Positions 1 through 9,665 of a stretch of DNA of 9,665 bases are shown here, piece by piece. A program made the position numbers and the translations under genes. The stretch's first letter is position 1. Every line of letters begins with the position of its first letter. Origin of the DNA: a virus. Lineage: Duplodnaviria > Heunggongvirae > Uroviricota > Caudoviricetes. The notes under the pieces were generated by a model, which saw only the letters and a list, made by a program, of their open reading frames with translations, searched no databases and was not told where the DNA came from. Where the stretch lies: IMG/VR virus record IMGVR_UViG_2681813316_000027, positions 1-9,665 of that record; one strand, 5' to 3'.

Positions 1-201
1 TTACCCATTGGCGCGGCTTAAGAGCTTATTTTTGAATTCACAATGGTCACGATATAACCATCTTGCTCGCCCGTGGATAACTTTGGCTTTTGGAAGGTCT
101 CCGGACTTAATCCGGTCATAGATGAAGGTTTTACCGAATCCAGTATCGGCCATGATGAATTTCAAATCAACCAGTGAATCAGGCTGTAGTTCGTGTTGCA
201 T
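1..201 (-). CDS. xis: Excisionase / AlpA-family DNA-binding protein (66 aa), complete; integrase expected just beyond the left edge
   Basis: ORF track 1..201(-). ATG at 201..199 with GGAG upstream; stop TAA at 3..1. Core IMADTGFGKTFIYDRI...GRARWLYRD looks like the phage excisionase/AlpA helix-turn-helix family. Position at the distal end of the leftward early operon fits xis. Confidence 0.7.
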   Translation of the reverse strand: MQHELQPDSLVDLKFIMADTGFGKTFIYDRIKSGDLPKAKVIHGRARWLYRDHCEFKNKLLSRANG

Positions 202-246
202 GAGTGCTATCTCCGAATAGGGAATCGAACCTGCAAATCAGGCAAT

Positions 247-266
247 AAAAAACCGCCATCAGGCGG
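247..266 (-). terminator. Intrinsic terminator (minus strand) between the small ORF and xis
   Basis: Plus strand CCGCC(253-257)-ATCA-GGCGG(262-266) preceded by AAAAAA(247-252). On the minus strand this is a 5-bp GC stem followed directly by a U6 tract. The stop codon of the 259..426 ORF sits in the loop. Confidence 0.5.
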
Positions 267-426
267 CTTGGTGTTCTTTCAGTTCTTCAATTCGAATATT
301 GGTTACGTCTGCATGTGCCATCTGCGCCCACAGCATCCAGTGGTCATAGCAGTCGTTGATGTTCTCTGCTTCGATAACTCTGTTGAATGGTTCTCCATTC
401 CATTCACCTGTTACTCGGAAGTGCAT
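259..426 (-). CDS. Hypothetical small protein (55 aa), MHFRVTGEWNGEPFNRVIEAENINDCYDHWMLWAQMAHADVTNIRIEELKEHQAA
   Basis: Translated by hand; below the length cutoff of the ORF track. ATG at 426..424 with GGAGATGATAA immediately upstream (good Shine-Dalgarno spacing); TGA at 261..259. Same strand as all neighbouring genes. The overlapping plus-strand ORF 193..441 has no ribosome-binding site and is rejected. Confidence 0.45.
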   Translation of the reverse strand: MHFRVTGEWNGEPFNRVIEAENINDCYDHWMLWAQMAHADVTNIRIEELKEHQAA

Positions 427-438
427 TTATCATCTCCA

Positions 439-462
439 TAAAACAAAACTCGCCGTAGCGAG
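439..462 (-). terminator. Intrinsic terminator (minus strand) downstream of the 266-aa gene
   Basis: Plus strand CTCGC(449-453)-CGTA-GCGAG(458-462), extendable by two A-U pairs, preceded by ATAAAACAAAA(439-448). On the minus strand this is a stem followed by UUUUGUUUU. Confidence 0.5.
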
Positions 463-483
463 TTCAGATAAAAGAAATCCGCA

Positions 484-1284
484 TTAAGCGGCGTCGGTGA
501 ATTCAAATAAAAAACCGGCTTGCGCCGGCTCTCTCATCTTTCTGTCTACCCATGCTGATATCGATGGCGGGTGCACCTTTTCAATAGCAGCGCGAAGTAC
601 AGCTGTACGTGCCAGTTTGTCAGTAATCTCAGGAAATCGCTTCTCTGTCTTCGGTACGTTAACAGCAACATTAGTAGAATCCGCACTGGCGAACGGATAC
701 ATACCAAGAACTCTCACGTCGAGCATTCGAAGACCATGAATTTTCACTTTCAAATTACGATTGATATAAAGCTCAGTGAAAACTTCATCCATTCTCTGTT
801 CCCACCATTTAGAGCGTATGTGCCTGTGTGGGCCGCAGCATCCAATCGCCACCCATTCAAATTTGCCAGAAAGGCGTAAAAGACGTTCAATTGATTCGTC
901 GGTATGCCAGACCGGAACCGCTTTTGATTTTAGCCAATCAGGAACCAACTCAATCTGCTCGTCGTTTTCTGCCTCTGTCCCTTCGATAACGTCAGGTATA
1001 AGAAACCATTCAATTCTGCTGAACCACTTCCCAACAAAGTCGTAGAATTTTGCTCGCCTCTTACTCCAGTCTACCGGAGTGCCTTTCTTTAATGCTTTCA
1101 TCCAGTCGCTAAAAGCGCCGTTATCAAGGCGTATATCACAAGGGAACATGGCAATCTTTTTCATCTGCTCTGGTCTGGCAAATGAAACAAAAGCCCCACC
1201 ATCACGGTAAAGGGCTTTAATCAGCATATCTGTAGGGGCATGCTCATCCCCCCATATTGGGCTGCCGTGAAAGTGGATGGTCAT
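484..1284 (-). CDS. TGT-fold (tRNA-guanine transglycosylase / DpdA-like) protein, 266 aa; putative DNA or tRNA 7-deazaguanine transglycosylase
   Basis: ORF track 484..1284(-). ATG at 1284..1282 with GGGGA upstream; TAA at 486..484. Motifs in the same order as the TGT catalytic core, as I recall it: DIRLDNGAFSDW (cf. TGT TDSGGFQ), WFLIPDV (cf. IFDE), EWVAIGCCG (cf. YAVGGLAVGE), FASADST (cf. MFDCVMPTR). No C-terminal CxCxxC...H zinc subdomain, consistent with short phage DpdA-like proteins. Assignment made from motifs by eye, not from a search. Confidence 0.55.
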   Translation of the reverse strand: MTIHFHGSPIWGDEHAPTDMLIKALYRDGGAFVSFARPEQMKKIAMFPCDIRLDNGAFSDWMKALKKGTPVDWSKRRAKFYDFVGKWFSRIEWFLIPDVIEGTEAENDEQIELVPDWLKSKAVPVWHTDESIERLLRLSGKFEWVAIGCCGPHRHIRSKWWEQRMDEVFTELYINRNLKVKIHGLRMLDVRVLGMYPFASADSTNVAVNVPKTEKRFPEITDKLARTAVLRAAIEKVHPPSISAWVDRKMREPAQAGFLFEFTDAA

Positions 1285-1295
1285 ATTATCCCCAT

Positions 1296-1322
1296 ATAAA
1301 AGAAATCCCCGCGAGTGCGAGG
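1296..1322 (-). terminator. Terminator-like hairpin plus U-rich tract (minus strand) just upstream of the 266-aa gene
   Basis: Minus-strand RNA reads CCUCGC-ACUC-GCGGGG (6-bp stem with one G-U pair) followed by AUUUCUUUUAU. The stem is only favourable on the minus strand. The U tract is interrupted, so this is weaker than the other terminators. Confidence 0.35.
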
Positions 1323-1451
1323 ATTGTTATTCATTGCCGATATTTACATTTATTTCGAATATCTTTACTGGGTAATCGCCAAAGTCATATGTTTTTTATT
1401 CTGTTTTATAAGCACTACTAAGTACTGCTTATTACAAATAAGAAAAGGCTG

Positions 1452-1480
1452 AAAAAATATTTAAGGCCACAACTGTGGCC
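1452..1480 (-). terminator. Probable terminator (minus strand) immediately after the secreted-protein gene
   Basis: Plus strand GGCCAC(1465-1470)-AACT-GTGGCC(1475-1480), a perfect 6-bp GC-rich stem. On the minus strand it is followed by UUAAAUAUUUUUU. It lies 10 nt after the stop at 1491..1493. Confidence 0.4.
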
Positions 1481-1490
1481 CTAAATTTAC

Positions 1491-2189
1491 TTACGGCACT
1501 GCGTTAATCAGATTACAAATACCTCTTTTGGCAGGGTCTGAATTCAACTTCTGGAAATTGGCGTTCAACATAGCAGTGTGTAAGTGATTCTCAACCTCAA
1601 AGAATAGGTCGATTTTGCCCTCTTTGGCTGCATGTTTCTTCCAAACATTCACTTGGTCATCAGCAATACGACTGGCGCAAGTGAACAAGAACGAACTGCC
1701 TCTAGGAATGGATGTCGTGCTGTAATACTCACCATCTACTTCTACATATTTAGCTCGGAATGACTCTAAGGTTAGCTTATTGCCGTTCTTGACCGACTTA
1801 ACTTCTGCCTTACTTGTTTCTTCCTGCTCTTCAGAATGTTTCTGCGTCGACGTGGGTATCTCATTGGCCGCTGTTACGCTGACTGAACTCCCCAAACCTT
1901 TGAGGCCATTAATTTGGATAAGATAAGCCAGCTCCAGAGCCTTATTATCAGTGAGTTTTCCACGCATATTTACCCACTGACGTTGAACCATTTTTATGGT
2001 GTCTGCGTTCTCTGGGTTTTCTTTGAGGGCACTAGAATAGGCAGAGCTAAGCTGTTCGTCTAATTTTGACAGACGTTCGTTATCGCAGATTTTATGTTCG
2101 ATTGCTGTCGAAGCCTTTTGGCAGTCAAAGCTGGCTGCAAATGCACCCGGCGATGCCACTAACAATGATGCCAGTAGGATATTTTTCAT
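1491..2189 (-). CDS. Secreted protein with N-terminal DUF1311/LprI-like domain (232 aa) and an unrecognised C-terminal domain
   Basis: ORF track 1491..2216(-). I prefer the internal ATG at 2189..2187 because GGAGTGAAT sits directly upstream, whereas the ATG at 2216 has no ribosome-binding site. N-terminus MKNILLASLLVASPGAFAAS is a typical Sec signal peptide. The mature N-terminus FDCQKASTAIEHKICDNERLSKLDEQLSSAYSSAL...QRQWVNMR fits the C..A.T..E..IC...L..LD..L...Y ... Q..W..R pattern of the LprI/DUF1311 family. Flanked by about 130 and 200 bp of AT-rich non-coding DNA. Confidence 0.6.
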   Translation of the reverse strand: MKNILLASLLVASPGAFAASFDCQKASTAIEHKICDNERLSKLDEQLSSAYSSALKENPENADTIKMVQRQWVNMRGKLTDNKALELAYLIQINGLKGLGSSVSVTAANEIPTSTQKHSEEQEETSKAEVKSVKNGNKLTLESFRAKYVEVDGEYYSTTSIPRGSSFLFTCASRIADDQVNVWKKHAAKEGKIDLFFEVENHLHTAMLNANFQKLNSDPAKRGICNLINAVP

Positions 2190-2319
2190 ATTCACTCCAT
2201 AAATACAAAAGCGCATTACTATAGCACTTAACCGATCGCTTATCTCGCCCGTTCGTCATTCTTATCTAACCAGAACATGCGGCTGCCACAGCACATGTCG
2301 AGGATCGCTGCATGTCCAG

Positions 2320-2487
2320 TCACCGGTTGCCTCCTTTGCGCAACATCGCATTCAGATATTTGTTGTCATTAACAGAACCGAAACTCTTTCTCTTAAGCAA
2401 TTCCTCTCTCGATGGCATTGGCTTTACGCGTTGGCGAATAATCATTTCTGCCGGAAGAATGCCGGGATTGTATGCAAGTCCTCTCAT
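2320..2487 (-). CDS. Hypothetical small protein (55 aa), [55 protein letters not shown]
   Basis: ORF track 2320..2520(-). The first two in-frame ATGs lack a ribosome-binding site. The ATG at 2487..2485 is preceded by GAGGAA, which overlaps the stop of the upstream 98-aa gene. Confidence 0.5.
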
Positions 2488-2497
2488 GGTAAATTCC

Positions 2498-2794
2498 TCA
2501 GTCATTACTGATAGCGCCATAGCGTGAGCGGTAATTACGCAGGCGCGGGTCGATATATTCAGGGAAGTGGGTATATGTGGCTTTGCGGAATGGTCGGATT
2601 GATGTTTCGTTTATTCGGTCTTTTTCCTGTTTTTCTGCGAGTTGTATATCGCGTCGGTACTTCCGTTCTGCTTTTGTTTCTGGTGGCAGAGCAAGAAACG
2701 CGTCGAGATTATTCTTGATATTTTCCAGCACCTCCGATACGGAATTGCCGGAACAGCGGCGCGGGTCATCCGCACCATACAGAGGCGCTGGCAT
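2498..2794 (-). CDS. Hypothetical protein (98 aa), charged and lysine/arginine-rich
   Basis: ORF track 2498..2794(-). ATG at 2794..2792 preceded by CAGGAGAAAATC, 13 nt after the ssb stop. No family recognised by eye. Confidence 0.7.
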
Positions 2795-2807
2795 GATTTT
2801 CTCCTGA

Positions 2808-3314
2808 TTAAATTGCGTGAATAGCGTGACGAGGGAAGGGGAGAGTTACTGGTGCAAAGGGTATATCGTCGTCAAAATCCATCGGAGGTTCGTTGTGTTG
2901 TGCTGGTGATGATTGCTGCTGTGGCTTCTGTGATTGCCTGCTGGCTGCTTGTTGTTTGCTGTCGCCAATGCCGCCAAGCATTTGCATCACGCCATTAATT
3001 CCGACATGAACCTCGGTTGTGTAACGGTCTTGCCCTGACTGGTCTTTCCACTTTCTGGTTCTCAGCATTCCCTCGAAATAAATCTGATCACCTTTTTTCA
3101 CATACTGCCCCACGACCTCAGCCAGTTTCCCGGATACAGCAACACGATGCCATTCAGTCAATTCCTTTTGCTCGCCAGTATTTTTATCTCGCCATTGTTC
3201 TGACGTGGCTATTGTCAGGTTAGCGAACGCTGTTCCTGATGGTGAGTATCGAACTTCCGGGTCTTGTCCTACCCGACCAAGGATAATCACCTTATTTATC
3301 CCGCGAGAACTCAT
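2808..3314 (-). CDS. ssb: Single-stranded DNA-binding protein (168 aa)
   Basis: ORF track 2808..3323(-). N-terminus [29 protein letters not shown] matches the conserved SSB OB-fold start. Gln/Pro/Gly-rich linker and acidic C-terminal tail DFDDDIPF. Preferred start is the ATG at 3314..3312 after GGTGGAG; the GTG at 3323 is an upstream alternative. Confidence 0.9.
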
Positions 3315-3778
3315 TTGCTCCACCTCTTGCCAGTTTTTATGTTGCTTATAATTGATTGAGATACACCCATGTCTTTTGCTATCTTGTACTGACTCTCTTT
3401 TTCAGAGAGTCTTTTCCTAATTTCTATAACCTGCCACTCTGTTAATTTTGCACCATGATGAGCATGACCTTTCTTGGCTCCACGATGCCTTCCTTTTGCT
3501 ATCTTGTCGTCCATGTTTTCTTGCGCGCTACCTAAAAAGAGATGTTCAGGATTAACGCAGCATGGGTTATCGCATTTGTGGCAAACCATCTTCCCAGATG
3601 GAATGGGGGAGTGATAAAGCTCAAAAGCAACCCGATGAGAAAGCATTGTTACGCCAAATGCTACAAATTTTGTGTATCCTCCTTTGTTTTTTGAATAGGT
3701 AGACTCCCAGCAACCTGTTGTTTCATTAACTTTGTAGCTGGACTCGAATCTTTTAATAATTCCGTCCAAGTGAGACAT
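3311..3778 (-). CDS. HNH endonuclease (155 aa), homing-endonuclease-like
   Basis: ORF track 3311..3778(-). HNH core ...[58 protein letters not shown]... with a C-terminal basic helix-turn-helix-like tail. Its stop overlaps the ssb start (ATGA) and its start directly abuts the stop of the annealing-protein gene. Confidence 0.85.
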
Positions 3779-4486
3779 TTATGCCGCCTGTTTTAGTTCG
3801 TTAACTCTGATGCTCATTACCTGAACGCATTTAGCCTGCGCCTCCTCGTTGCCAGCCATTAATTGCCAGTCACGCTGATAACGCTCGATGAGTTTTTTCT
3901 TGTCAGTTTCTGTTGATGCATAATCGCTGAAGTCTTTCAGGATTTGTTCGCAGTCAACCGATGGAGATTTCTGGTTGGTATTTTCTGGTGATGGTTTGTT
4001 ATCTGATGCTGGGATTGCCCATCCCGGCAGCGATGGAGGGAGCCAGTAAAATCCTGTTCCATCCTTGAGTTTTGCCCTGTGCCATCCCTGCTTTTTATCG
4101 AGAGATGTTTGTGCAAAACCTTCCTCAAGGTTATACAGATACCGACCGATTCCCCACTGAACGGCAGCGCGCTTCATTGCACCGGAACGACCGCCTTTGA
4201 CGGCTTCTACCTGCGTGTTTTCAGCAGCATCCCATTTGGTTACCCATTCGGAATCAATCTTTATTGATATGCCGCATTCAACTCCGCCGTTGTTGGGAAT
4301 ATCGCGGTATTCATTGCGCCATCCTGCTTTGCCGCAAACATCGTCCAGGCGCTTCATGATTGCCCGGTTCGTGACATAAGCCAGCACCATAGCCCACACC
4401 TTGCCATCGCGTGTTTTACCGCTTTGCTGTATTCGCCATTCGATATCTTCAGGGCTGAATGGCTCATCGAATTTGTTCAAATCCAT
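3779..4486 (-). CDS. Rad52/Rad22-family single-strand annealing recombinase (235 aa)
   Basis: ORF track 3779..4486(-). ATG at 4486 preceded by GAGGTG. Motifs DDVCGKAGW and KGGRSGAMKRAAVQWGIGRYLYNL resemble the Rad52 core motifs EMFGYNGW and [23 protein letters not shown] as I recall them. Occupies the position of lambda bet. Confidence 0.8.
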   Translation of the reverse strand: MDLNKFDEPFSPEDIEWRIQQSGKTRDGKVWAMVLAYVTNRAIMKRLDDVCGKAGWRNEYRDIPNNGGVECGISIKIDSEWVTKWDAAENTQVEAVKGGRSGAMKRAAVQWGIGRYLYNLEEGFAQTSLDKKQGWHRAKLKDGTGFYWLPPSLPGWAIPASDNKPSPENTNQKSPSVDCEQILKDFSDYASTETDKKKLIERYQRDWQLMAGNEEAQAKCVQVMSIRVNELKQAA

Positions 4487-4585
4487 AATTCACCTCAGAA
4501 TGGACACGGCCCAAGGAAATAACGCTGATTTAATACTTCGACTCGGGACAAATTAAGGCATACCCGCATTCCTTCGCGGTCGCCA

Positions 4586-4744
4586 TTATGGCGATACCAG
4601 AGAGCTTTCTGCGTGTACATGCGTCTCTGTAACTTGCTCTCCTTCACTGTGGTTGCAAGTGACATGAATATCTCCTTCGTTACCGATTAATTCTTTCATC
4701 TGACGAATGAATTCTTCGTCTGACCAGTTATCTGTAAAACTCAT
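4586..4744 (-). CDS. Hypothetical small acidic protein (52 aa), MSFTDNWSDEEFIRQMKELIGNEGDIHVTCNHSEGEQVTETHVHAESSLVSP; in the position of lambda kil
   Basis: ORF track 4586..4774(-). Start moved to the ATG at 4744..4742, which overlaps the stop of the upstream cIII-like gene (ATGA), giving translational coupling. No sequence similarity to Kil recognised; the comparison is positional only. Confidence 0.5.
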   Translation of the reverse strand: MSFTDNWSDEEFIRQMKELIGNEGDIHVTCNHSEGEQVTETHVHAESSLVSP

Positions 4745-4911
4745 GGGCGGCCTTGTTGTTTCAAAATATCCCAAAGCTTTTCGAGCAAACTTTTCATTCT
4801 TGGTTGTTTAAAGTCTGCTCCGGTTAGAATGTTTTTTCGTGAATGCTGTACCGATAAAATCGGGTTGAAAGGGCGAACCGATGCCGCCCCTGCAATAGCG
4901 AACTGTTGCAT
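4741..4911 (-). CDS. CIII-like protein (56 aa), MQQFAIAGAASVRPFNPILSVQHSRKNILTGADFKQPRMKSLLEKLWDILKQQGRP; possible FtsH/HflB inhibitor
   Basis: ORF track 4741..5016(-). Start placed at the ATG at 4911..4909 because of the strong upstream site GAAGGAGCATCCT; the upstream part of the tracked ORF overlaps a terminator. MQ.AIAG at the N-terminus, a C-terminal amphipathic SLLEKLWDILKQQGRP and the size resemble lambda CIII (MQYAIAGWP...LRDGWKRLIDILNQPGVP) as I recall it. Confidence 0.55.
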   Translation of the reverse strand: MQQFAIAGAASVRPFNPILSVQHSRKNILTGADFKQPRMKSLLEKLWDILKQQGRP

Positions 4912-4977
4912 AGGATGCTCCTTCTGTTTGATTGCATAACGAAAACGCCTCGAGTGAAGCGTTATTGGTATGCATAT

Positions 4978-5001
4978 AAAAAAGCCCTCACACTGGAGGG
5001 C
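4978..5001 (-). terminator. Intrinsic terminator (minus strand) upstream of the cIII-like gene
   Basis: Plus strand AAAAAA(4978-4983) GCCCTC(4984-4989)-ACACTG-GAGGGC(4996-5001). On the minus strand this is a 6-bp GC stem followed directly by U6-7. Confidence 0.6.
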
Positions 5002-5063
5002 AAAGAAGATTTCCAATAATCAGAACAAGTCGGCTCCTGTTTAGTTACGAGCGACATTGCTCC

Positions 5064-5091
5064 GTGTATTCACTCGTTGGAATGAATACAC
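5064..5091. repeat. Perfect 9-bp inverted repeat GTGTATTCA / TGAATACAC with a 10-nt spacer
   Basis: Read directly from the sequence (5064-5072 and 5083-5091). Lies 5 nt downstream of the stop of the 62-aa gene on the minus strand. No U tract follows on either strand, so it is not a canonical terminator. Confidence 0.4.
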
Positions 5092-5096
5092 AGTGC

Positions 5097-5285
5097 TTAT
5101 TCGTCATGCATTTCAGGTAATTCTTCGTATTCGACTCCCCATACGTTTTTACACCAACTAACTCGCTCATATCTTTTACAAAAATCAGACCACATAACTT
5201 GTGTTCCATCATGGTTTGTTATTACTTCTGTAATATCACCAACACTAACAAAACTGGTATTAGAAGCAGTTATTTTTACTTTCAT
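5097..5285 (-). CDS. Hypothetical small protein (62 aa)
   Basis: ORF track 5097..5285(-). ATG at 5285..5283 preceded by GGAGGTGAGTA. Its start overlaps the stop of the upstream 44-aa ORF (TAATG). Confidence 0.65.
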   Translation of the reverse strand: MKVKITASNTSFVSVGDITEVITNHDGTQVMWSDFCKRYERVSWCKNVWGVEYEELPEMHDE

Positions 5286-5419
5286 TACTCACCTCCAAGA
5301 GCATTTGCAGCCTCTTTTGCTTTGTGAATCCATAGCAGAGCCATGTAGTACACAGCCTTTTCGTCGGCTCCTGTGATATCTTGCTCTGCCATCCATTTTG
5401 TAAATTCAACTGCGTTCAT
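5285..5419 (-). CDS. Hypothetical small protein (44 aa), MNAVEFTKWMAEQDITGADEKAVYYMALLWIHKAKEAANALGGE
   Basis: Translated by hand; below the ORF track cutoff. ATG at 5419..5417 preceded by AGAGGTGAAT. TAA at 5287..5285 overlaps the next start. Confidence 0.5.
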   Translation of the reverse strand: MNAVEFTKWMAEQDITGADEKAVYYMALLWIHKAKEAANALGGE

Positions 5420-5456
5420 ATTCACCTCTGTTGTTTATGCCAAAAATAAAGGCCGA

Positions 5457-6080
5457 CTATGCGACCTCGGAAGGAAGTCCAATCATCTTATTCAAATCTT
5501 CTACCCGTAAAGCAGGAAGTGCTGTACTTGCTTTATCTGCTTCTTTTGGTAGCAATTCTTTGCTTTCAGGCCAAACTTCAATAAGTCGCTTAACTGTTGT
5601 GACTGAGTTCAAAGCAGCCCATACATTTGATTCGATATCCTTTTTCTTGGCTTCAAGTTTTTGTTGCAATGCGCAGATTTCATCAAACCTTTTTGTTATT
5701 TCGTGTTCTGCGTCAAACATGCATTTATCTTTTTCTGGGGTGGGGAGCAATATATCTTCACCGTTGCCGTCTTTTCCGTATGAATGCCAGCCAACCCTTC
5801 TTCCAGATACAGTCAGATAAATCGAAGTAGAACGAACATCGCATGAGTAAAATGAACATCCCATCTTCTCAAGTTCTTCACTTATAGCTGCTAACTTGGA
5901 TGATAACCGATCCACTTCCTCAGTTTTCTTTTTACCGCCAAACGCAATAACTCTGGCGTCAAGTGCAAGCTGGTTCTTTAACTTTGTTACTTCTTCAAGT
6001 TCAGTGAAAACCCCAGACTTAATTAAAGCGTTACGAGCGATTTCCTCTTTCATTCTCGTAGTTAAGCGGATTGATGACAT
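5457..6080 (-). CDS. Hypothetical protein (207 aa), first gene after N; predicted helix-rich, no recognised family
   Basis: ORF track 5457..6140(-). Start moved to the ATG at 6080..6078 (MSSIRLTTRMKEEIARN...), which is preceded by GAGAGGAATTAAT 11 nt after the N stop. The upstream extension has no ribosome-binding site. Confidence 0.75.
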   Translation of the reverse strand: MSSIRLTTRMKEEIARNALIKSGVFTELEEVTKLKNQLALDARVIAFGGKKKTEEVDRLSSKLAAISEELEKMGCSFYSCDVRSTSIYLTVSGRRVGWHSYGKDGNGEDILLPTPEKDKCMFDAEHEITKRFDEICALQQKLEAKKKDIESNVWAALNSVTTVKRLIEVWPESKELLPKEADKASTALPALRVEDLNKMIGLPSEVA

Positions 6081-6091
6081 ATTAATTCCTC

Positions 6092-6418
6092 TCAAATAAG
6101 TGGTTTGCTGCCTAATTTCATTTTCTGGCGACCAACACAAGTCACCCCCATTTCACTGCGTGGCTTGCTGTACCATGTGCGCTGATTCTTGCGCTCAATA
6201 CGCTGCAGGTTGCTTTCAATCTGTTCGTGGTATTCAGCCAGCACTGTAAGGTCTATCGGATTTAGTGCGCTTTCTACTCGTGATTTCGGTTTGCGATTCA
6301 GCGAGAGAATAGGGCGGTTAACTGGTTTTGCGCTTACCCCAACCAACAGTGGATTTGCTGCTTTCCATTGAGCCTGTTTCTCTGCGCGACGTTCGCGGCG
6401 GCGTGTTTGTGCATCCAT
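6092..6418 (-). CDS. N: Antitermination protein N (108 aa), lambda type
   Basis: ORF track 6092..6418(-). MDAQTRRRERRAEKQAQWKAANPLLVGVSAKPVNRPILSLNRKPKSRVESALNPIDLTVLAEYH... matches my recollection of lambda N, including the arginine-rich boxB-binding motif; the C-terminal roughly 20 residues diverge. Ribosome-binding site CAGGAGAATCCAG then ATG. Confidence 0.9.
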   Translation of the reverse strand: MDAQTRRRERRAEKQAQWKAANPLLVGVSAKPVNRPILSLNRKPKSRVESALNPIDLTVLAEYHEQIESNLQRIERKNQRTWYSKPRSEMGVTCVGRQKMKLGSKPLI

Positions 6419-6686
6419 CTGGATTCTCCTGTCAGTTAGCTTTGGTGGTGTGGTGGCTGGTAGTCTAGCTCCAGCTTGTTGAGTCTCATTCGGAGGGGTA
6501 TAACCGGCACCCCAGCGATTTTTCCATGCGACAACGTGCGCGTTATGGCGGCCTTATCGCCCGCGGCTCCCCATCTCGTCCACGCTATTGCTAGCGTTGG
6601 GAGCGCTTCACCGCTCAACAGTAGGTAAGCACTTGCCAGTGACTAGCTGGCTTCACCACACCCCAAAGCCTTCTGCTTTGAATGCT
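6419..6686 (-). promoter_or_regulatory. N leader with long-range stem (probable RNase III processing structure) enclosing a GC-rich insert of about 215 nt
   Basis: In the minus-strand RNA, GGGGUGUGGUG (plus 6654-6664) can pair with CACCACACC within plus 6444-6456, about 200 nt apart. The two ends and the N ribosome-binding site match the lambda N leader as I recall it; the interior does not. Confidence 0.5.
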
Positions 6687-6717
6687 GCCCTTCTTCAGGG
6701 CTTAATTTTTAAGAGCC
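6687..6717 (-). promoter_or_regulatory. nutL: boxA (GGCTCTTAA) and boxB hairpin (GCCCTGAAGAAGGGC)
   Basis: Minus-strand reading GGCTCTTAAAAATTAAGCCCTGAAGAAGGGC. boxB at plus 6687-6701 and boxA at plus 6709-6717. Near-identical to lambda nutL as I recall it (CGCTCTTAA...GCCCTGAAGAAGGGC), with one change in boxA. Confidence 0.85.
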
Positions 6718-6761
6718 TCACCTTCATGGTGGTCAGTGCGTCCTGCTGATGGCTTAAAATT

Positions 6762-6829
6762 ACAAGAAAGATTGTATGTTGTAAACAAGAAATATTGTAA
6801 AAAGGGGCGTGAAAAACAAACTCCATTGT
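6762..6829 (-). promoter_or_regulatory. OL operators (three 434-type 14-bp sites) overlapping the pL promoter
   Basis: ACAAGAAAGATTGT (6762-6775), ACAAGAAATATTGT (6785-6798), ACAAACTCCATTGT (6816-6829). All fit the 434 repressor/Cro ACAA-N6-TTGT pattern. Candidate pL -35 TTTACA and -10 TAATTT lie on the minus strand within this block. The leftward transcript would reach nutL about 40-70 nt downstream. Confidence 0.8.
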
Positions 6830-6878
6830 TTTTAAATGAAAAATAGTTTGTTTTTGGTTATCGAGATTGAGGTGGGGA

Positions 6879-8231
<1,353 letters not shown>

Positions 8232-8239
8232 GACATTCC

Positions 8240-8271
8240 CGCTCTTACACATCCCAGCCCTGAAAAAGGGC
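8240..8271 (+). promoter_or_regulatory. nutR: boxA CGCTCTTAC and boxB GCCCTGAAAAAGGGC; the rho-dependent tR1 region follows up to cII
   Basis: boxA at 8240-8248 and boxB hairpin at 8257-8271. Near-identical to lambda nutR as I recall it. Confidence 0.85.
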
Positions 8272-8350
8272 ATCAAAATAAACCACACCTATGGTGTATG
8301 CATTTATTTGCATACATTCAATCAATTGTTATCTAAGGAAATACTTACAT

Positions 8351-8644
8351 ATGGTTCGTGCAAACAAACGCAACGAGGCTCTACGAATCGAGAGTGCGTT
8401 GCTTAACAAAATCGCAATGCTTGGAACTGAGAAGACAGCGGAAGCTGTGGGAGTTGATAAGTCGCAGATCAGCAGGTGGAAGAGGGATTGGATTCCAAAG
8501 TTCTCAATGCTGCTTGCTGTTCTTGAATGGGGTGTCGTCGACGACGACATGGCTCGATTGGCACGACAAGTTGCTTCGATTCTCACCAATAAAAAACGCC
8601 CGGCGGCAACCGAGCGTTCTGAACAAATCCAGATGGAATTCTGA
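8351..8644 (+). CDS. cII: Transcriptional activator CII (97 aa), lambda type
   Basis: ORF track 8291..8644(+) trimmed to the ATG at 8351. MVRANKRNEALRIESALLNKIAMLGTEKTAEAVGVDKSQISRWKRDWIPKFSMLLAVLEWGVVDDDMARLARQVASILTNKKRPAATERSEQIQMEF is essentially lambda CII. Confidence 0.95.
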   Translation: MVRANKRNEALRIESALLNKIAMLGTEKTAEAVGVDKSQISRWKRDWIPKFSMLLAVLEWGVVDDDMARLARQVASILTNKKRPAATERSEQIQMEF

Positions 8645-8666
8645 GGTTATTACTGGAACTATCAAC
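8590..8666 (-). ncRNA. oop: oop antisense RNA (about 77 nt), overlapping the 3' end of cII
   Basis: Placed by homology to lambda from memory. Minus-strand terminator GCCGCCGGGCG followed by UUUUUUAUU (plus 8587-8607). Transcript start is predicted about 7 nt downstream of the pO -10. Coordinates are approximate to within a few nt. Confidence 0.6.
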
Positions 8667-8673
8667 AGGAGTC

Positions 8674-8702
8674 ATTATGACAAATACAGCAAAAATACTC
8701 AA
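8674..8702 (-). promoter_or_regulatory. pO promoter for oop (minus strand)
   Basis: Minus-strand -35 TTGAGT (plus 8697-8702), 17-nt spacer, -10 CATAAT (plus 8674-8679, overlapping the O start codon). Confidence 0.5.
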
Positions 8703-9576
8703 CTTCGGCAGAGGTAACTTTGCCGGACAGGAGCGTAATGTGGCAGATCTCGATGATGGTTACGCCAGACTATCAAATATGCTGCTTGAGGCTTATTCAG
8801 GCGCAGATCTGACCAAGCGACAGTTTAAAGTGCTGCTTGCCATTCTGCGTAAAACCTATGGGTGGAATAAACCAATGGACAGAATCACCGATTCTCAACT
8901 TAGCGAGATTACAAAGTTACCTGTCAAACGGTGCAATGAAGCCAAGTTAGAACTCGTCAGAATGAATATTATCAAGCAGCAAGGCGGCATGTTTGGACCA
9001 AATAAAAACATCTCAGAATGGTGTATCCCTCAAAACGAGGGAAAATCCCCTAAAACGAGGGATAAAACATCCCTCAAATTGGGGGATTGCTATCCCTCAA
9101 AACAGGGGAACACAAAAGACACTAATACAAAAGAAAATAGAAAAGATTATTCGTCAGAGAATTCTGGCGAATCCTCTGACCAGCCAGAAAACGACCTTTC
9201 TGTGGTGAAACCTGATGCTGCAATTCAGAGCGGCAGCAAGTGGGGGACAGCAGAAGACCTGACCGCCGCAGAGTGGATGTTTGACATGGTGAAGACTATC
9301 GCGCCATCAGCCAGAAAACCGAATTTTGCAGGGTGGGCTAACGATATCCGCCTGATGCGTGAACGTGACGGACGTAACCACCGCGATATGTGTGTGCTGT
9401 TCCGCTGGGCCTGCCAGGACAACTTCTGGTCCGGTAATGTGCTGAGCCCGGCCAAACTCCGCGACAAGTGGACCCAGCTCGAAATCAACCGTAACAAGCA
9501 ACAGGCAGTCGTGACAGCCAGCAAACCAAAACTCGACCTGACAAACACAGACTGGATTTACGGGGTGGATTTATGA
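8677..9576 (+). CDS. O: Replication initiator O (299 aa), lambda type
   Basis: ORF track 8677..9576(+). MTNTAKILNFGRGNFAGQERNVADLDDGYARLSNMLLEAYSG... matches lambda O as I recall it. Contains the ori iterons. Its stop overlaps the P start (ATGA). Confidence 0.95.
   Translation: MTNTAKILNFGRGNFAGQERNVADLDDGYARLSNMLLEAYSGADLTKRQFKVLLAILRKTYGWNKPMDRITDSQLSEITKLPVKRCNEAKLELVRMNIIKQQGGMFGPNKNISEWCIPQNEGKSPKTRDKTSLKLGDCYPSKQGNTKDTNTKENRKDYSSENSGESSDQPENDLSVVKPDAAIQSGSKWGTAEDLTAAEWMFDMVKTIAPSARKPNFAGWANDIRLMRERDGRNHRDMCVLFRWACQDNFWSGNVLSPAKLRDKWTQLEINRNKQQAVVTASKPKLDLTNTDWIYGVDL
9026..9150. repeat. ori-lambda-type replication origin: four iterons followed by an A/T-rich tract, inside O
   Basis: Iterons TCCCTCAAAACGAGGGA (9026-9042), TCCCCTAAAACGAGGGA (9046-9062), TCCCTCAAATTGGGGGA (9070-9086), TCCCTCAAAACAGGGGA (9093-9109), each an internal inverted repeat. 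The tract 9110-9150 is about 80% A+T. Confidence 0.85.
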
Positions 9577-9665
9577 AAAACATCGCCGCACAGATGGTTA
9601 ACTTTGACCGTGAGCAGATGCGTCGGATCGCCAACAACATGCCGGAACAGTACGACGAAAAGCCT
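9573..9665 (+). CDS. P: Replication protein P (helicase loader), N-terminal 31 codons; truncated by the window edge
   Basis: ATG at 9573 overlapping the O stop. MKNIAAQMVNFDREQMRRIANNMPEQYDEKP matches the lambda P N-terminus as I recall it. Not in the ORF track because the ORF is open at the window edge. Confidence 0.9.
   Translation, partial: MKNIAAQMVNFDREQMRRIANNMPEQYDEKP

Follow-up and report, generated by a model that had tools for sequence, protein, structure and literature searches.

The DNA considered here, which we call the window, is the whole of positions 1 to 9,665 of the IMG/VR virus record IMGVR_UViG_2681813316_000027 (Caudoviricetes), and our subject is one gene on its minus strand, which encodes a predicted secreted protein with an N-terminal domain of the DUF1311/LprI type and a second domain of its own. 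Pfam and PHROG searches place the window, 9.7 kb, in a lambdoid E. coli prophage of the P22/lambda-mosaic kind, of which it forms the immunity and early-left region. An earlier note, made from the letters of the sequence without database searches, had described the gene as an AT-rich moron, that is, a cargo gene expressed independently in the lysogen, and had suggested lysozyme inhibition as its activity. The family is in fact already catalogued, as PHROG 4675 and, in RefSeq, as 'lysozyme inhibitor LprI family protein'. What has not been described before is the C-terminal domain, the two-domain architecture common to Aeromonas T4-like phages, lambdoid prophages and phage-plasmids, and any function. 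The reading that we favor, at a probability of roughly 0.3, is that the protein is a periplasmic binder that neutralizes an incoming muralytic enzyme, and not a lysozyme inhibitor of the MliC type.

The gene and its borders

The features of the locus are collected in Table 1. The RefSeq annotation uses the 232-amino-acid form of the protein; a mechanical list of open reading frames (ORFs) starts the gene 9 codons earlier, at an ATG at 2216 that is missing in Salmonella phage SSU5, the source of a close relative. The non-coding spacers of about 130 and 200 bp that the earlier note had drawn around the gene are present, with lengths of 130 nucleotides (nt) upstream and 206 nt downstream, and so is the hairpin that it assigned to the gene's 3' side, a 12-bp stem with a folding energy of -17.6 kcal/mol (z = -5.7). 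The stem is followed by AUAUUUUUU; in SSU5 the stem is retained with a different loop. Just past this terminator, at 1394-1446, lies a 26-nt imperfect palindrome, 77% complementary with its arms 1 nt apart, which is kept in Escherichia phage ev099 and absent in SSU5.

The description of the gene as AT-rich did not survive. Its guanine plus cytosine (GC) content is 0.439, and 0.455 at third codon positions (GC3), inside the distribution for the window (0.448 +/- 0.027; 36th percentile) and indistinguishable from the genes on either side (0.448 and 0.464), so that the comparison of composition which the note itself had named refutes this part of it. AT-richness is confined to the downstream spacer, whose GC content falls in the lowest 0.2% of windows.

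Table 1. Coordinates of the gene, its parts, its surroundings and the main landmarks of the window.
Feature	Position	Strand	Remarks
Coding sequence, 232 amino acids (aa) and stop codon	1491..2189	minus	PHROG 4675; RefSeq WP_021823752.1 'lysozyme inhibitor LprI family protein'
Shine-Dalgarno sequence GGAG	2195..2198	minus	5 nt upstream of the ATG at 2189; unchanged in every aligned copy
Predicted Sec signal peptide, residues 1-18	2136..2189	minus	Cleavage between AFA and ASFDC; no lipobox
N-terminal short DUF1311/LprI-type helical domain, residues 19-98	1896..2135	minus	Pfam PF07007
Variable polar linker, residues 99-137, ~40 aa	1779..1895	minus	Low conservation, insertions and deletions, AlphaFold confidence (pLDDT) 20-30
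C-terminal phage-restricted domain, residues 138-232, ~95 aa	1494..1778	minus	AlphaFold2 (AF2) model
Upstream non-coding spacer, 130 nt	2190..2319	minus	RNA fold z = +1.5; no annotated gene in the identical RefSeq stretch
Candidate extended -10 element, TGCTATAGT	2218..2226	minus	29 nt before the start codon; predicted transcript start near 2211
Probable 3'-end remnant of a Phage_phiTE_072-family gene	2222..2269	minus	DNA homology to SSU5 up to 2258
Intrinsic terminator	1449..1486	minus	12-bp stem 1486..1459, then U-run; -17.6 kcal/mol, z = -5.7
AT-rich downstream spacer	1285..1490	minus	GC 0.33; holds the terminator, a 26-nt imperfect palindrome and a second terminator-like hairpin
Second terminator-like hairpin	1304..1325	minus	9-bp stem, then UUUCUUUU; -14.3 kcal/mol, z = -5.7; downstream module edge
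Mosaic module, recurring as a unit in lambdoid prophages and phage ev099	1293..2340	minus	Edges of blastn homology
LexA-type cI	7280-7912	minus	
cro, cII, replication protein	from about 8000	plus	
N-like gene, Nmad5, Rad52-type annealase, HNH endonuclease, SSB, Abc2 (anti-RecBCD), DUF2737		minus	Rest of the minus strand
Gene under study, TGT/DpdA-like gene, TorI		minus	Minus strand, continued

A secreted protein of two domains

The N-terminus of the protein, MKNILLASLLVASPGAFA followed by ASFDC, has the form of a standard Sec signal peptide. In 9/9 aligned relatives a signal peptide is likewise predicted and a small-x-small site precedes an invariant ASFDC, and the reading of the product as secreted, made earlier from its sequence, is upheld; we infer that the protein is exported to the periplasm.

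The assignment of the N-terminal domain to DUF1311 is borne out by profile search, by a small margin. Pfam PF07007 matches residues 23-78 at 23.4 bits, a narrow pass of the gathering cut-off of 22, and the alignment spans only positions 1-70 of the 106 in the profile. The matches in relatives all end at 69-75, which marks a short form of the domain; PF07007 is found in 8 of 9 diverse relatives at E <= 0.1, the relatives' scores run from 17 to 31 bits, and an SSU5-type relative (P0005) reaches 30.8 bits. An NCBIfam search of the protein gave sub-threshold noise only. Cysteines C23 and C35 are invariant in 9/9 relatives, the alignments also pick out D44, Q69 and R76 in the same domain, and Y51 is invariant across the alignment of LprI-type N-domains. 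The LprI-like pattern of Cys, Tyr and Trp on which the earlier assignment leaned can thus be recognized, with the qualification that its tryptophan, W72, is invariant in the closer relatives.

The rest of the protein is, as had been claimed, without a recognized domain: zero Pfam families match it. The size of about 110 aa given for this part needs revision, since the structured portion comprises ~95 aa (residues 138-232) and is preceded by a variable linker of ~40 aa. A full-length AlphaFold model built with 12 close homologs had a mean pLDDT of 49.5 and was not used for fold searches. The C-terminal domain modeled by AF2 from a more diverse alignment is well defined (pLDDT 89.6; predicted TM score, pTM, 0.81), and its predicted fold consists of a short helix, a beta-hairpin, two 25-residue helices and a third helix; residues G153, C171, D178, N209 and C225 are invariant. 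The PDB holds no structural match to the model, and searches of PDB sequences with the whole protein and with profiles of the N- and C-domains returned designed repeat proteins and noise only. We considered whether the C-domain might be a second, diverged copy of DUF1311 and rejected this (hhalign probability 0.6%). Nor is there in the protein any MliC/PliC (PF09864), Ivy or PliG lysozyme-inhibitor domain or fold.

Are both domains functional? Compared with the SSU5 copy, the gene as a whole has a ratio of nonsynonymous to synonymous divergence (dN/dS) of 0.15; the C-domain is at 0.055, the N-domain at 0.11 and the linker at 0.65. These values indicate strong purifying selection on both domains and near neutrality of the linker, and we conclude that both domains are functional and that the linker is a tether. 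Because each domain contains an invariant pair of cysteines, one disulfide per domain is likely, C23-C35 in the first and C171-C225 in the second.

The C-domain is rare: when 1.84 billion representative proteins were searched exhaustively with phmmer, 12 hits emerged, 2 of which are repetitive giants that we judge spurious. A pattern scan of one genome per species, for which a narrower C-domain alignment without the T4-like sequences was used, found two loci only, on a Kluyvera SSU5-like contig and on a small Rosenbergiella contig. Yersinia enterocolitica carries distant members in small integrated elements that have serine recombinases on their flanks, and in one metagenomic element there is a variant whose N-terminus is different and bears a lipoprotein signal; P0059 and P0064 are the lipoprotein-anchored variants that share the C-domain. 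The C-domain is restricted to phages and small mobile elements.

The surroundings of some distant homologs deserve a brief description. Those in two elements (L008, 7735-8999; L004, 7392-8711), lipoprotein-anchored forms among them, are flanked by small membrane proteins, and the elements carry integrase or serine-recombinase genes. On L008 the neighbors are a TM2-domain protein and a 69-aa transmembrane protein that matches Holin_9 weakly and below the cut-off (E = 0.0066); in Yersinia they are a 101-aa lipoprotein and a 69-aa transmembrane protein.

Transcription signals

The gene and the early-left (pL) operon share a strand, and the 130-nt spacer that separates the gene from the upstream DUF2737 gene contains no terminator, as judged by its folding. 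Since nothing intervenes, pL transcripts should reach the gene and end at its terminator unless they are anti-terminated.

Does the gene also have a promoter of its own? A consensus scan of the upstream spacer found no sigma-70 promoter there, and no -35 element was found. An extended -10 element is present, and the sequence AAGTG[C/A]TATAGT, which contains the TGnTATAGT element, is invariant in six copies on three backbones, while neighboring bases vary; in some SSU5-like copies the element overlaps the stop codon of the upstream gene. An own promoter at this element, 2226-2218, is suggested; no result supports expression confined to the lysogen.

The comparison with SSU5, in which the gene occupies 4032-4730 of sequence L003, shows an uneven divergence. 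The upstream region differs at 3 of 40 nt, whereas third codon positions diverge by 30%; the first 30 codons are as conserved as the upstream region. Synonymous divergence (dS) climbs steeply along the gene: the signal peptide is at 0.15, the N-domain at 0.46 and the C-domain at 1.4. The gradient suggests either an intragenic recombination breakpoint or a conserved mRNA element at the 5' end.

A mobile module

The earlier note's description of the gene as cargo is supported, for the gene is carried as a discrete unit. The block has fixed edges, varying neighbors and its own terminator: on lambdoid backbones the limits of blastn homology fall repeatedly at 1293 and 2340, as seen in ev099 and in 13 of the 33 IMG/VR contigs, and the DNA beyond these edges differs. 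On SSU5-like backbones the homology edges are instead at about 1454 and 2246-2258. In Stx2 phages Ea22-like and other ORFs occupy the same slot between the same flanks. The DUF2737 gene of the window and the Ea22-like gene of ev099 are unrelated and end in the same last ~7 codons (..RKGGN[R/Q]*; 2320-2340 in the window, 5029-5050 of sequence L002 in ev099), and this shared 3' tail, which marks the upstream edge of the module, looks like a recombination joint.

The family match is essentially full length (PHROG 4675, E = 6.8e-95, residues 1-231 against profile positions 1-234 of 235). Of 5426 complete E. coli genomes, 107 contain the whole cassette; the block in E. coli MRE162 (NZ_CP119404) is 99.4% identical. 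A 1.2-kb stretch around the gene is 100% identical, as DNA, to that in an E. coli 2018-01-1CC prophage adjoining torI/dsdC. The window as a whole is in no complete RefSeq E. coli genome, the best coverage being 81%, which is typical of lambdoid mosaicism. In the lambda-like phage ev099 the cassette is 98% identical as DNA and is bordered by an Ea22-like gene on one side and a small gene adjoining xis on the other; the ev099 protein, gp35 (YP_009909933.1), is 96% identical. The Salmonella phage protein SSU5_101 (YP_006906733.1) is 81.5% identical, and the DNA 83.5%. Full-length copies with 78-82% protein identity are carried by 126 Enterobacter, Citrobacter and Escherichia plasmids, which measure about 105-120 kb; almost all of these plasmids are typed as non-mobilizable, and we read them as SSU5-type phage-plasmids. 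Together with the relatives in PHROG 4675 and RefSeq WP_021823752.1, the ev099 and SSU5 proteins form one full-length family that has been annotated by Pfam name only. The reading frame is intact in hundreds of copies; P0044, P0065 and P0066 are truncated.

Where did the lambdoid copy come from? In SSU5-type phage-plasmids the gene preceding the homolog belongs to the Phage_phiTE_072 family. Upstream of the lambdoid gene the translated sequence LDKNDERAR*AIG*VL (asterisks, stop codons) aligns with LQEIEELARETIGEVL, weakly (E = 6.5) and colinearly, and this probable decayed 3' end hints that the lambdoid copy was captured from an SSU5-like context.

Relatives in T4-like phages

A tblastn search of 50,697 phage records found a homolog in 155, of which 4 belong to ev099 and SSU5 themselves, in their GenBank and RefSeq versions. 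The remaining 151, all below 60% identity, are distributed among phages of Aeromonas (65), Escherichia (about 47), Klebsiella (25) and other hosts, and their assignment as T4-like comes from three sampled records, all of virulent phages of about 160-175 kb, two of them Straboviridae and one a Marfavirus. The gene is located between primase gene 61 and dCTPase gene 56, among early and replication genes, in each of the three, which are Aeromonas phages 44RR2.8t and 60AhydR15PP and Klebsiella phage PhiKpNIH-6; it overlaps or closely follows the upstream ORF. In T4 the region of genes 61 to 56 is transcribed early. The small ORFs found upstream in the T4-like phages, in Yersinia and on L008 are unrelated to each other and to DUF2737, so that no conserved partner appears among them.

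The Aeromonas T4-like relatives, at 24-30% identity, have the two-domain architecture and keep all four cysteines. They score 35-41 bits with the N-domain profile and 31-39 bits (38.8 and 30.7) with the C-domain profile, and Foldseek aligns the C-domain model with the 60AhydR15PP protein at a TM score of 0.79. The PhiKpNIH-6 protein scores 67 bits for the N-domain and a weak 14.9 bits for the C-domain. Full-length relatives in virulent phages imply an accessory protein that is not specific to lysogeny, and they argue against a role that would purely serve the lysogen.

Discussion

What might such a protein do? As we read the literature, the common thread of DUF1311 proteins is a periplasmic binding module aimed at enzymes that cleave glycan strands. 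Etsi4, a DUF1311 protein of enterohemorrhagic E. coli, rescued E. coli when it was co-expressed with the type VI effector Etse4, which is toxic in the periplasm (PMC12981562), and in Pantoea and Salmonella Dublin proteins with LprI domains are predicted to give immunity to lysozyme-like or transglycosylase effectors (PMC9796082, PMC8867033). These immunity proteins have signal peptides, are periplasmic and neutralize effectors that target the cell wall, as shown for Etsi4 and predicted for the others. They differ from the phage protein in consisting of a single domain, of about 146-150 aa, and in being encoded directly beside the effector; the phage protein has the additional C-domain and no effector neighbor.

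A second comparison comes from phage T4 itself, whose Spackle protein (Sp, gp61.3) is small, secreted, early and annotated as periplasmic. Spackle blocks the gp5 tail lysozyme of a superinfecting phage. The resemblance is one of logic only. An analogy by genome position had to be dropped, as the T4 record puts sp between genes 41 and 61 and the relatives described here lie between 61 and 56, and PhiKpNIH-6 carries both sp and a member of the present family.

The scenario that we favor for the phage protein runs as follows. It would be made during lytic growth by read-through from pL, and possibly in the lysogen from the extended -10 promoter at 2226-2218, and would be exported to the periplasm and there disulfide-bonded. 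Acting stoichiometrically, it would bind and neutralize a peptidoglycan-cleaving enzyme that arrives from outside; the target could be a type VI secretion effector or a muralytic enzyme associated with the virion of a superinfecting phage. The infected cell or the lysogen might thereby be shielded, with the C-domain providing target specificity or an additional contact. This reading draws on the DUF1311 literature, on early expression in virulent phages and on cargo-like carriage in temperate ones.

Several results weigh against it. The DUF1311 match is borderline and partial, with 70 of 106 profile positions aligned. No specific similarity relates the protein to Etsi4 (ECs_0213), and kinship with Spackle was rejected (hhalign probability 0.7%; hidden Markov models of the N- and C-domains gave no hit on T4 Sp). 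PADLOC returned no match for the protein. Across the lambdoid, SSU5, Yersinia, Rosenbergiella and T4-like contexts no effector, lysin or other partner gene is conserved beside it. As for a lysogenic supply of the protein, the extended -10 motif is not above chance in the window, with 5 found against 8.6 expected, and we do not accept conservation of the upstream spacer as proof of a promoter, because the rise of dS from 0.15 to 1.4 along the gene makes recent recombination as good an explanation of low upstream divergence as constraint. Our low confidence in the binder reading reflects in particular the lack of a conserved partner gene nearby and a fold that offers no functional lead.

One may go further and suppose that PHROG 4675 and its T4-like relatives constitute a widely shared and so far unrecognized phage 'periplasmic shield', in which a DUF1311 module is joined to a new fold of a beta-hairpin and three helices, against the muralytic enzymes of competing phages or of type VI secretion, deployed early by virulent T4-like phages and as lysogen-protecting cargo by the lambdoid and SSU5 types. 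We regard this extension as speculative and, taken as a whole, improbable.

Perhaps the protein acts in the envelope on something other than a peptidoglycan enzyme, as a blocker of DNA injection, of a receptor or of an inner-membrane entry component, in superinfection exclusion after the manner of Imm, Sie or Cor, or as some other envelope binder. In favor of this, it is an early secreted protein of many types of phage and the function of DUF1311 is not established, and the fast-evolving linker and the lipoprotein-anchored variants would fit a binding module tethered to the envelope. There is, however, no similarity to known exclusion proteins and no PADLOC hit, and the DUF1311 proteins that have been characterized by experiment are all related to the cell wall. 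On balance we consider such a factor improbable as well, without dismissing it.

One of those characterized proteins suggests a different kind of role, in which the phage remodels the wall for its own benefit by modulating the lytic transglycosylases or autolysins of the host. Salmonella ScwA (SL1344_0490), a DUF1311 protein that is free in the periplasm, has four conserved cysteines, which form two disulfides, and controls the levels of the lytic transglycosylase MltD (PMC7933661); in these general features the phage family is similar. The architectures differ, however: ScwA is chromosomal and has 275 aa, with the LprI domain at its C-terminal end, whereas in the phage protein DUF1311 is N-terminal, and no homology was detected beyond the domain. 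With no known host partner in addition, a ScwA-like function seems to us unlikely.

Regulation of the phage's own lysis is a further idea, with the protein as a periplasmic partner of holin, endolysin or spanin and a logic like that of the T4 RI antiholin. A secreted helical protein with predicted disulfides, found in virulent and temperate phages alike, would suit that role, and the weakly holin-like membrane protein mentioned above is encoded upstream in one distant context. The gene's location speaks against it, since the gene is never in or beside a lysis cassette, being early-left in the lambdoid phages and in the replication-gene region in the T4-likes; moreover, a protein that is 78-100% identical serves phages, lambdoid and SSU5, whose lysis genes are unrelated. 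We think this role quite unlikely.

The activity that the family name implies, and that the earlier note took up, is inhibition of lysozyme, of the c-type or of phage, as reported for M. tuberculosis LprI (Rv1541c), which gave PF07007 its name. The case for it consists of the Pfam and RefSeq name, the passed cut-off and the predicted periplasmic location, and what the two proteins have in common is the helical DUF1311/LprI-type domain, the Cys/Tyr/Trp pattern and export. LprI, however, is a lipoprotein with an MliC domain, whereas the phage protein has neither lipobox nor MliC, its DUF1311 part covers positions 1-70 of 106, and its C-domain is unrelated. The authors of the ScwA study credit the MliC domain with the lysozyme inhibition by LprI, and found that ScwA, which has an LprI domain without MliC, gave no protection against lysozyme (PMC7933661). 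PliC, Ivy and PliG are equally absent from the phage protein. One would think, too, that T4-like phages of environmental Aeromonas need no resistance to animal lysozyme. The claim of lysozyme inhibition therefore rests on a family name, and we hold it to be very unlikely.

The three truncated copies might suggest a hitch-hiking or decaying passenger without current function, as might the fact that many related prophages and about 98% of complete E. coli genomes lack the gene. This is scarcely credible in view of the strong purifying selection on both domains, the intact frame in hundreds of copies and the four cysteines that are invariant down to 24% identity.

What would follow from these readings? 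If a protective function is true, one family links superinfection exclusion in virulent phages with lysogenic conversion by the prophages and phage-plasmids of clinical Enterobacterales, and DUF1311 and its new companion domain gain a defined target. Otherwise, the name 'lysozyme inhibitor LprI family protein' on hundreds of phage and plasmid copies is an over-annotation, because the part of LprI that is credited with lysozyme inhibition is absent from the phage protein. At present the gene is an ordinary, catalogued phage accessory gene with one uncharacterized domain.

Other features of the window

A better candidate than the gene at 1491..2189 for secreted cargo expressed in the lysogen is the minus-strand ORF at 6879-7283 (PHROG 2651, function unassigned). 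Its start codon overlaps the cI stop codon (ATGA), and it has a signal-peptide-like N-terminus. Since it takes the position of rexAB in lambda, the lysogen probably transcribes it together with the repressor.

Next to the module, the minus-strand gene at 484-1284 encodes 266 aa and matches PHROG 887, 'queuine tRNA-ribosyltransferase' (DpdA/TGT-like), at E = 1.4e-102, without a Pfam or NCBIfam match. Relative to ev099 and many IMG/VR contigs, the block 481-1292 is a clean insertion between two terminator-like hairpins, and it may be cargo for DNA modification of the 7-deazaguanine type. The early-left operon contains a nucleotide-modification-associated gene as well, Nmad5 (5457-6140, minus strand; PF18757, E = 3.8e-71). 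In a Dhillonvirus, one missense mutation in Nmad5 led to escape from the Tmn defense system (PMC11846954). Taken together, Nmad5 and the DpdA-like gene may indicate that the prophage modifies its DNA.

On the strand opposite to cII and O, a promoter-like site with a TG (8702-8674) is followed by a strong terminator (8620-8593), a layout at 8593-8702 that matches the oop antisense RNA of lambda; Rfam gave zero matches across the entire window, this segment included. The sole clearly AT-rich ORF of the window, at 5097-5285 on the minus strand (62 aa; GC 0.333, GC3 0.206), falls within a wider stretch of low GC at about 4950-5700. Between the genes for the Rad52-type annealase and SSB lies an HNH_3 homing-type endonuclease gene with a C-terminal helix-turn-helix (3311-3778, minus strand), whose GC content, 0.406, is below that of its neighbors.

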